Shown piece after piece: positions 1,414-1,700 of a stretch of 11,490 bases of DNA. The stretch spans positions 1 to 11,490 of the IMG/VR virus record IMGVR_UViG_2778261058_000014, one strand, 5' to 3'. Position 1 is the first letter of the stretch. Each line of letters opens with the position of its first letter. The translations under genes were made by a program, and so were the position numbers. Under the pieces are notes generated by a model. It saw only the letters and a list, made by a program, of their open reading frames with translations, ran no database searches and was not told the DNA's origin. The DNA comes from a virus (Duplodnaviria; Heunggongvirae; Uroviricota; Caudoviricetes).

Positions 1414-1700
1414 ACCTTAGGAAATCTTAGGGGCTGGTTGACACTTTCCGGCTTAAGACCTTAACAAATCTTAACATCGCAGGTTGACACACTTGACACT
1501 TTTTCGCGAAAAACCTTATCAAACCTTAGCATTTCTAAGCATGGCAACTTGACACTTTTCGCGATTTTTTCGGCTTTTTGACGTGGTAAATCTGGCGAAA
1601 GGCCAGTAATGGCGCGGCTTACAGCGAGGTTGACACTTTTTCGCGTTCAGAGTGTAAAGTGTCAACCTGGCAAGCTGCTCAACTTGACACTTTTTGATGT
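1414..1700. repeat. dense repeat array: TTGACACTTT(T)TCGCG-type units (at least 5 direct and 1 inverted) interleaved with (A)ACCTTA / AATCTTA units
   Basis: Read directly: TTGACAC units at 1438-1452, 1484-1490, 1493-1508, 1549-1563, 1630-1645, 1684-1698 and inverted at 1657-1666; ACCTTA/ATCTTA units at 1414-1431, 1452-1479, 1510-1540. No ORF explains the region. Confidence 0.75.

Follow-up and report, generated by a model that had tools for sequence, protein, structure and literature searches.

Among the satellites of Gram-negative bacteria, the closest described packaging system is that of the island EcCICFT073, in which a complex of the protein RppA and the small terminase (TerS) recognises the island's own cosB (the binding part of the cohesive-end, or cos, site), and it was experimentally shown that the helper terminase is redirected there (PMC6739421). 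We analysed a stretch of 11,490 bp (IMG/VR record IMGVR_UViG_2778261058_000014, positions 1 to 11,490; the whole stretch is hereafter called the window), which is a phage satellite of the phage-inducible chromosomal island (PICI) type from Escherichia coli with all its core genes on the - strand. In this window a repeat array occupies the entire intergenic gap (1407-1699) between the stop codon of a gene for a protein of 175 amino acids (aa) (1700-2227, - strand) and the start of a 59-aa open reading frame (ORF; 1227-1406, - strand). Sequence comparison suggests that the array and the 175-aa protein are most likely a variant of the Rpp/cosB packaging-redirection module that is not described with this protein and this motif. 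A literature search found Rpp described only for EcCICFT073-like islands and gave no account of the 175-aa protein or of the motif.

The end of EcCICFT073 was located in CFT073, where rppA (144 aa) lies between two exact copies of the lambda cosN. Three CCGGACAT repeats (2 direct and 1 inverted) are present from the rppA stop codon to the downstream cosN, and the ORF that follows, of 93 aa, is homologous to the 59-aa ORF of the window (pairwise E 4e-5); the two have a C-terminal WKKPxRxRR in common and both match phrog_1561/7271. As in EcCICFT073, the 175-aa gene is the last core gene of its island and is followed first by a non-coding stretch of ~290 bp that contains short direct and inverted repeats, next by a small ORF and then by cargo. 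Judged by gene order, the 175-aa gene, the array and the 59-aa ORF are the positional equivalent of RppA, cos and ORF. Like RppA/B/C, described together with the cos1 site of EcCICFT073 (Fillol-Salom et al. 2019, PMC6739421), the 175-aa protein is a small satellite protein whose N-terminus mimics the DNA-binding domain of lambda Nu1 (the first ~45 positions of phrog_57), and RppA matches this same N-terminal part of phrog_57 with an E of 3.9e-8. The similarity to Rpp is, however, confined to the helix-turn-helix: the BLASTP alignment of RppA with the 175-aa protein covers residues 2-26 only (25 helix-turn-helix residues, 36% identity), and the C-terminal domain is alpha/beta here as opposed to the helical dimerisation domain of Rpp. 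Also, the motif is AAAGTGTCAA in the window and CCGGACAT in EcCICFT073, and the window is without a lambda cosN, its helper possibly not being lambda-like.

The TTGACAC array and the 175-aa protein

The exact heptamer TTGACAC occurs 7 times in the window, and all 7 copies lie within 1438-1690, where 6 are on the + strand (1438, 1484, 1493, 1549, 1630 and 1684) and 1 is inverted (1659-1665). The expectation from shuffling is 1.5 copies, and none of 200 shuffles gave 7. Variant cores enlarge the set, namely TTTACAC at 1409 and GTGTAAA at 1652. The repeat array seen in the original prediction is real, and the stretch is non-coding. That prediction had counted at least six near-identical units of 15-16 bp; the repeats and their occurrence in both orientations (6:1) stand, whereas the unit length does not, as the conserved unit is ~12 bp long. 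The 16-mer TTGACACTTTTTCGCG has only 2 exact copies (1493 and 1630), and its imperfect copies are at 1684 (13/16), 1549 (a one-T deletion) and 1438 (12/16). In the gene-sense strand the unit reads aAAAGTGTCAA(c/g)(c/t), written aAAAGTGTCAAsy, over 99 distinct sites in relatives. It may be noted that the three A's preceding the core are 80-97% conserved in these 99 sites, and that the flanking AAA played no role in choosing them.

On mapping the sites from the 175-aa gene outwards, S1 (1684-1693, - strand, AAAGTGTCAA in gene sense) is found 9 nt past the stop codon. S2 (1652-1665, + strand) is the sole inverted copy, with AAAGTGTCAA on the + strand at 1656-1665 overlapping the GTGTAAA variant at 1652-1658, and S3 (1630-1639) is on the - strand. 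A site-free segment (~1556-1629) splits S1-S3 from S4-S7. The latter are all on the - strand and comprise S4 (1549-1558), the neighbouring copies S5 (1493-1502) and S6 (1484-1490), which are 9 bp apart, and S7 (1438-1447), which is missing in some E. coli relatives whose variable cargo starts earlier. The variant core TTTACAC (1409-1415, - strand) is 2 nt from the start codon of the 59-aa ORF. This distal half is made of ~55-bp units, each having one core and one box pair of the second repeat family described below, and 1438-1477 is 78% identical to 1493-1532. Copy number and spacers differ among E. coli islands. The S1-S2 spacer is 18 bp in the window (1666-1683) and 26 and 34 bp in some E. 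coli islands (L041, L042, L047), where its growth consists of added copies of the 8-bp unit cagcttgc. As this spacer varies, there is no strict helical phasing between S1 and S2.

The second, interleaved family of short repeats, which was also part of the original prediction, is confirmed. On the + strand 4 of the 5 copies of ACCTTA in the window lie within 1414-1528, and the paired form CTTAn-N4-7-CTTA(A/G) occurs 3 times (1416, 1460 and 1515), each time in the array (within 1416-1540). The pairs are at 1414-1431 (ACCTTAGGAAATCTTAGG, two CTTAG boxes 10 bp apart), at 1458-1475 (ACCTTAACAAATCTTAAC) and, together with an extra box, at 1513-1540 (ACCTTATCAAACCTTAGCATTTCTAAGC). Equivalent boxes in relatives read TAAG (E. 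coli, Yersinia and Klebsiella) or TAAC (Serratia, including the form GGTAACAAATGGTAACG), and they are similar to the GGTAACA/GGTTAAC cosB repeats of Nu1-type phages. We conjecture that the paired TAAG boxes may be the target of a second protein, for which the helper TerS is a possibility. Between the two clusters lies the site-free central element (1588-1628), with the inverted repeat CTGGC-GAAAG-GCCAG (1592-1606) and the G+C-rich TAATGGCGCGGC (1607-1618). Its core CCAGTAATGG (1603-1612) is kept in Escherichia, Yersinia, Klebsiella/Raoultella and one Pantoea island, though not in all relatives. These central 41 bp (1588-1628; 5001-5040 in L019/L020) are 88% identical to a non-coding segment in many Shiga toxin (Stx)-converting phages (Sepvirinae), where the counterpart is found between an early-left ORF and antB, upstream of antB, and does not lie at a packaging site. 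The shared stretch could be a site for one and the same protein, the scar of a recombination event or a hint at the helper. The site-free segment also contains phased T/A tracts (1556-1579), comprising ATTTTTTCGGCTTTTT at 1564-1579 and its continuation by the AAAA/TTTT of S4; they are ~10 bp apart and, as read from the sequence, an intrinsic bend is possible. A full consensus site for integration host factor was not seen by eye.

The 175-aa protein is composed of a winged helix-turn-helix (residues 1-43) with a Nu1/Rpp/Xis-type fold, a disordered linker (residues 45-56) and a C-terminal domain that is alpha/beta in the structure model. The small terminase family phrog_57 matches residues 1-42 only (E 1.6e-7), and Pfam gives HTH_17 alone, sub-threshold. 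The best phage matches of the N-terminus are the Nu1 proteins of the cos phages Serratia BZS1 (E 1e-4; 47% over 38 residues) and Citrobacter phiNP. For the C-terminal domain 18 relatives were found among 1.84 billion representative proteins, all 18 belonging to the same family. No terminase Pfam family matches the protein and no terL gene is present within the window; the protein has no sequence match in PDB, and the model as a whole is without a viral fold match. Because likeness to known proteins is confined to the first ~42 residues, the protein is neither a small terminase nor a strict Rpp homologue, and the DNA-binding head alone is in common. Genuine TerS or Rpp membership was accordingly rejected for the C-terminal two thirds on the lack of a terminase Pfam, PDB or viral fold match. 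The original prediction had called the gene TerS-like, which is right for the N-terminal ~45 residues and not for the rest.

Motif, recognition helix and cosB position

Homologues of the 175-aa protein (34-83% overall identity) are present in Citrobacter, Serratia, Pantoea, Rouxiella, Enterobacter, Klebsiella, Raoultella, Yersinia and Rahnella. Across 22 homologues the N-terminal 42 residues, with the recognition helix SRQTVYDW, are near-invariant and the remainder has diverged. AAAGTGTCAA-type sites are found ~10-300 bp 3' of the stop codon in Escherichia, Yersinia, Klebsiella, Raoultella, Serratia, Rouxiella, Buttiauxella, Pantoea and Scandinavium; the spacers between sites are unrelated across genera and the cores are invariant. 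A blind scan of IMG/VR, for which the pattern was the inverted pair AAAGTGTCAA-N10-40-TTGACACTTT, gave 66 loci. A full-length homologue was found in 47 of these, and in 46 of the 47 its stop codon is ~10 nt from the match. Another 8 of the 66 loci carry a different protein of 186-193 aa (MSLMSVSQYAKHAGMSRQALY..., family 2), which has only the first ~40 residues in common with the 175-aa family (family 1), at 49% identity. This family-2 protein resembles the Nu1 of BZS1 over ~70 residues and its recognition helix is SRQALY.W; an array of 4-9 identical-type cores lies upstream of the Nu1-like gene. Also, the polarity of the array tracks the side on which the helix-turn-helix gene lies and not transcription, with 185 forward and 50 reverse sites in family 1 as opposed to 11 and 41 in family 2. 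One recognition helix and one adjacent motif are thus combined in two families with unrelated C-termini. Of the computational evidence that the motif is read by the helix, this is the strongest. From such comparisons we hold it highly probable that the 175-aa protein binds the array. The multi-site protein-binding region of the original prediction is strongly supported by this co-conservation of motif and recognition helix across genera and in two families, and the conservation of the repeat unit in related islands, to which it had pointed as a check, is seen in the ~12-bp unit that recurs beside all intact homologues across Enterobacterales genera.

The phages with related Nu1 proteins show where such repeats are placed. 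In BZS1 and phiNP the stretch from the annotated cohesive end to Nu1, directly upstream of terS, contains three copies of GGTAACA, and Pseudomonas phage Turba has GGTTAAC four times directly upstream of terS. Short repeat arrays serve as cosB in these Nu1-relative phages. In all 8 family-2 loci (L030, L052, L057, L060, L077, L081, L084 and L089 of IMG/VR) the array is flanked on one side by the start of the Nu1-like gene and on the other by a BZS1-type 12-nt cohesive end, GCATTGCGCGCC, of which 5 loci have an exact copy and 3 a copy with one mismatch. The family-2 satellites and phiNP/BZS1 have ~50 bp in common, i.e., cosN and 35 bp, and their divergence starts exactly at the GGTAACA repeats in the phages and the TTGACAC sites in the satellites. 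Read from these alignments, family 2 has kept the helper's cosN and replaced its cosB, which is the Rpp principle with a TTGACAC motif. The family-2 elements are satellites, having an integrase, Ant, a primase, tail-fibre and fibre-assembly genes, 275-aa and 173-aa proteins and cargo. As they carry a BZS1/phiNP-type cosN, their helper type can be predicted, namely BZS1/phiNP-like cos phages. In the sequences compared, then, the sites exist, they accompany the protein, and in the sister family they hold the cosB position; this position beside cosN is the most direct evidence for preferring packaging as the function of the array.

The array of the window can be set against several known systems. 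With lambda-type cosB (the R elements of gpNu1, BZS1 and phiNP being nearest) it has in common repeats for a Nu1-type helix beside the gene that encodes this helix. But it lies after the 3' end of the gene, whereas the BZS1/phiNP cosB lies before the gene start; it has at least 9 sites in 290 bp as opposed to 3 sites in ~30-120 bp; and it contains a second repeat family, with no cosN or large-terminase gene alongside. Repeat clusters around a central cut segment are known from P1 pac (hexamer clusters flanking the cut region) and from SPP1 pacL-pacC-pacR. Like these, the array has two repeat clusters, a central segment of tens of bp and A-tracts that may bend the DNA, whereas the sequences and the proteins are unrelated, and central cutting in the window array is a conjecture. 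The 175-aa protein would also be comparable to TerS/pac of the Staphylococcus aureus pathogenicity islands (SaPIs) and to GpsA/GpsB of the PICI-like elements (PLE) (PMC11417361), in that a satellite factor gives the helper terminase a new DNA address. The SaPI TerS is a complete small terminase, unlike the 175-aa protein, which has the DNA-binding module only, and the latter is without homology to the PLE Gps proteins.

Packaging and the alternative readings

Packaging recognition of a PICI-type satellite, cosB- or pac-like, is the function we favour for the array, at a confidence somewhat better than even. Several copies of the 175-aa protein would bind the ~12-bp aAAAGTGTCAAsy sites through the Nu1/Rpp-type winged helix-turn-helix, three sites (one inverted) being gene-proximal and four to five distal around the site-free centre. 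The C-terminal domain, alone or with the helper small terminase, would recruit the helper large terminase to satellite concatemers, and satellite DNA would thereby be packaged ahead of helper DNA. In this scheme the paired TAAG boxes that are interleaved with the cores would play an auxiliary part, as targets of a further protein that may be the helper TerS, and so would the phased A-tracts, as a bend. The cut would fall in the central element 1588-1628, which is a candidate cut site by position only, or would be imprecise if the helper packs by headful. The parts of the scheme that we infer are that the 175-aa protein binds the sites, that the terminase is recruited, what the second repeat family does and where the cut is made.

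Several results weigh against a packaging function. The lambda cosN (up to 2 mismatches) is not found in the window; the P2 cosN (up to 5 mismatches) has two 5-mismatch matches there, both outside the array; the BZS1-type cosN (up to 2 mismatches) has one, at 5426, away from the array; and the nhmmer cos profile gives no match in either the window or family 1. This mismatch-tolerant search agrees with the original prediction, which had seen no lambda or P2/P4 cosN nearby. Its proposal of a satellite cosB-like site is supported by analogy (EcCICFT073 synteny and the family-2 cosB position) and lacks a cosN in the window. The central element differs at several positions, including the G+C-rich part, even within E. 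coli, while a cosN is normally steadier. The C-terminal domain of the 175-aa protein is unlike Rpp, the TerS oligomerisation domain or any viral fold. Also, the type of helper may be a different one. Next to the 175-aa gene are the genes of a 223-aa DUF2213 protease-like protein (2234-2905, - strand) and of a 197-aa protein (2970-3563, - strand). The former has 54% identity with the N-terminal part of a Rac-SA53 protein, protease/scaffold-like and 430 aa long, and the two match positions 115-328 and 402-544, respectively, of phrog_6216 (545 aa). By these matches they look like a split helper-type head protease-scaffold, a candidate capsid-assembly hijack module. Rac-SA53-type phages have Terminase_2/Terminase_6N and are probably headful packagers. 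As the DUF2213 genes resemble the Rac-SA53 type, the helper may be a headful packager and the array pac-like, and the cos analogy may not transfer literally. In a search for DNA shared with a helper phage, neither the array nor its parts had a meaningful phage match except that of 41 bp to Stx phages, and the Klebsiella-group and Serratia arrays had none. The left end of HK97 was tried and is unrelated, and tblastn with the family-2 N-terminus gave no match.

The original prediction had named an operator array as the alternative to packaging. The 175-aa protein would here be a Cox/BldC/Xis-like regulator at the boundary of late operon and cargo, and the array could insulate or drive the 59-aa ORF and the cargo, or silence antisense transcription. 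We regard this as rather unlikely. In its favour, the only Pfam match is HTH_17 and sub-threshold, the fold fits regulation of the Cox/BldC/Xis kind equally well, one source labels the Pantoea homologue 'Repressor', the core includes the -35 hexamer TTGACA, and in both families the array is upstream of something transcribed in the island direction. Yet no sigma-70-like promoter was found in 900-3100, and neither such a promoter nor a terminator in the array; a set of sigma-70 promoters on the TTGACA cores was rejected, as these have no acceptable -10 partners (promoter search and by eye). Cargo downstream of the array varies, its start in some relatives being within the distal part of the array. 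The polarity of the array relative to transcription flips between the families, whereas that relative to the side of the helix-turn-helix gene is retained, and the family-2 array is flanked by a bona fide cosN and is in the cosB position. The lack of a promoter, the variable cargo, the polarity flip and the family-2 cos context thus weaken the operator. Arrays of P2 Cox, BldC and Xis-type MerR-like winged-helix proteins are tightly spaced and overlap promoters or att sites; the window array is at neither an att site nor a recognisable promoter, and its sites are 9-81 bp apart, unlike the tight head-to-tail runs of those proteins. The island ends lie beyond the cargo, at least 1.5 kb away from the array, and att-arm sites for an excisionase were rejected by this position.

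A landing pad or decoy for a helper or host protein (the helper small terminase, an antirepressor partner or a nucleoid protein), by which the array would sense the helper or titrate a helper factor, is in our view unlikely. The paired TAAG/TAAC boxes, 10 bp apart, resemble the GGTAACA/GGTTAAC cosB repeats, and the central 41 bp are common to Stx phages, both of which favour it. But TTGACAC follows the recognition helix of the satellite protein in two unrelated protein contexts, and no phage in the collection carries the array (window 1100-2300 at the DNA level and the 175-aa protein at the protein level are absent among 50,697 phage records); for the second repeat family the idea refines packaging and is not an exclusive rival to it. 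A second replication origin or a partition/multimer-resolution site, with a layout like a PICI ori or parC of plasmid R1, is very improbable. Two repeat clusters do surround a site-free segment of 60-80 bp, and some unrelated IMG/VR loci (L036, L049) have similar 10-mer arrays beside primase-like genes. The array, however, is 39-49% G+C without an A+T-rich core, has no partition NTPase or resolvase gene beside it, and is 3.4 kb away from a canonical origin at 4795-5163. In this 370-bp gap right after the primase gene, more than 10 CAACTGTCTACC-type iterons in both orientations, often 11 bp apart, surround very A+T-rich DNA, which is the organisation reported for Gram-negative PICI origins (PMC6092414). 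It is the probable replication origin of the island, and because of this iteron/A+T-rich structure the array was rejected as one. That the array is a non-functional leftover of local tandem duplications we find hardly credible. The ~55-bp units of the distal half with their 78% identity, and the variation of copy number and spacers among E. coli islands, are what such duplications would leave, but across genera the cores are invariant while the spacers have diverged, the flanking AAA is conserved, and the arrangement is kept in two protein families. A structured RNA was also considered and rejected, there being no Rfam match and the sense transcript folding only modestly better than shuffles (z -2.2).

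Island setting, distribution and implications

The core genes of the island begin with an AntA/AntB-family protein gene (10044-10844, - strand), next to which small genes follow in order. They continue with a D5_N/Pox_D5 primase gene (5164-6969, - strand), the genes of a ProQ/FinO-domain protein (4252-4794, - strand) and a PerC-family regulator (3968-4255, - strand), and the 197-aa, 223-aa and 175-aa genes; a DUF4747 cargo gene is at 1-894. The ProQ/FinO-domain (RNA chaperone family) and PerC-family genes lie directly after the origin, and the pair recurs in L095 with a different primase. A 598-aa ORF (8255-10051, - strand) has no Pfam match, and only its last ~50 residues match the phage 'transcriptional repressor' families phrog_6196/1743; at its position the closest island, L001, has several small genes, an Icd-like one among them. 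It is either a novel large gene or a small gene lengthened by an open frame upstream. For the cargo, PADLOC gives no known defence system. The 59-aa ORF has the C-terminal motif YQWKKPDRPRR and a Shine-Dalgarno-like AAGGTG 7 nt upstream. Of 50 distinct arrays, 20 have on their 3' side a small ORF ending in Y(Q/H/E)W(K/R)KPxxxRR; islands of Serratia and Klebsiella are among them (examples of the ORF are at L093:3374-3655 and in L021, L022, L024 and L064), and in EcCICFT073 such an ORF follows cos (phrog_1561/7271). This ORF may be a member of the packaging module.

The same island is present in strain FDAARGOS_1058 between abgR and smrA, with a tyrosine integrase at the boundary. Among 5426 complete E. 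coli genomes, 166 have the array region at 90-100% identity, in every case on the chromosome. The module occurs with differing morphogenesis-hijack genes and variable cargo, and by this comparison it is portable. In L021 (Klebsiella pneumoniae) and L024 (Serratia), Dit-like, Pam3_gp18-like, E217_gp41-like and Apex-like genes precede the helix-turn-helix gene, these tail-tip/baseplate families standing in place of the capsid-related genes, and in L021 a DUF5681 gene comes right after the array, followed by tail genes (terminator, sheath and tube). These may be tail-tampering satellites, or satellites beside or inside a prophage. In L096/L097 (5001-5681) a 226-aa 'AntA' consists of the AntA N-terminus fused to the last ~88 residues of the 175-aa protein. 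An internal deletion has taken out the replication and morphogenesis part here and left int-alpA-fusion-cargo, a decayed satellite with a SIR2-type cargo. P0078, with an AntA N-terminus and a C-terminus of the 175-aa type, was rejected as a 'domain swap', being the deletion remnant of an island and no functional fusion.

A broader proposal, which we make tentatively and with considerable doubt, is that of a widespread class of satellite packaging specifiers in which a Nu1-mimic head, a novel alpha/beta effector and a two-motif address can be plugged beside differing cut sites. If true, Enterobacterales satellites with differing capsid- or tail-hijack modules would retarget cos, and possibly pac, terminases without the helper cosB, the cut site being a BZS1-type cosN in family 2 and another or a headful cut in the family of the window. 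The selection of satellite DNA over helper DNA in Gram-negative bacteria has been worked out experimentally for one system, that of Rpp with lambda and phi80. The module described here would, if the packaging reading is true, be a second and structurally different solution, which ~3% of the complete E. coli genomes have and which is present in many other Enterobacterales as well. It offers a defined 12-bp site, and family 2 offers a test system in which the helper type and the cut site (BZS1/phiNP cosN) are readable from sequence. As a compact pair of protein and site, it could be used to direct DNA into phage particles. Such a module would, if true, explain the spread of islands carrying defence or virulence cargo.

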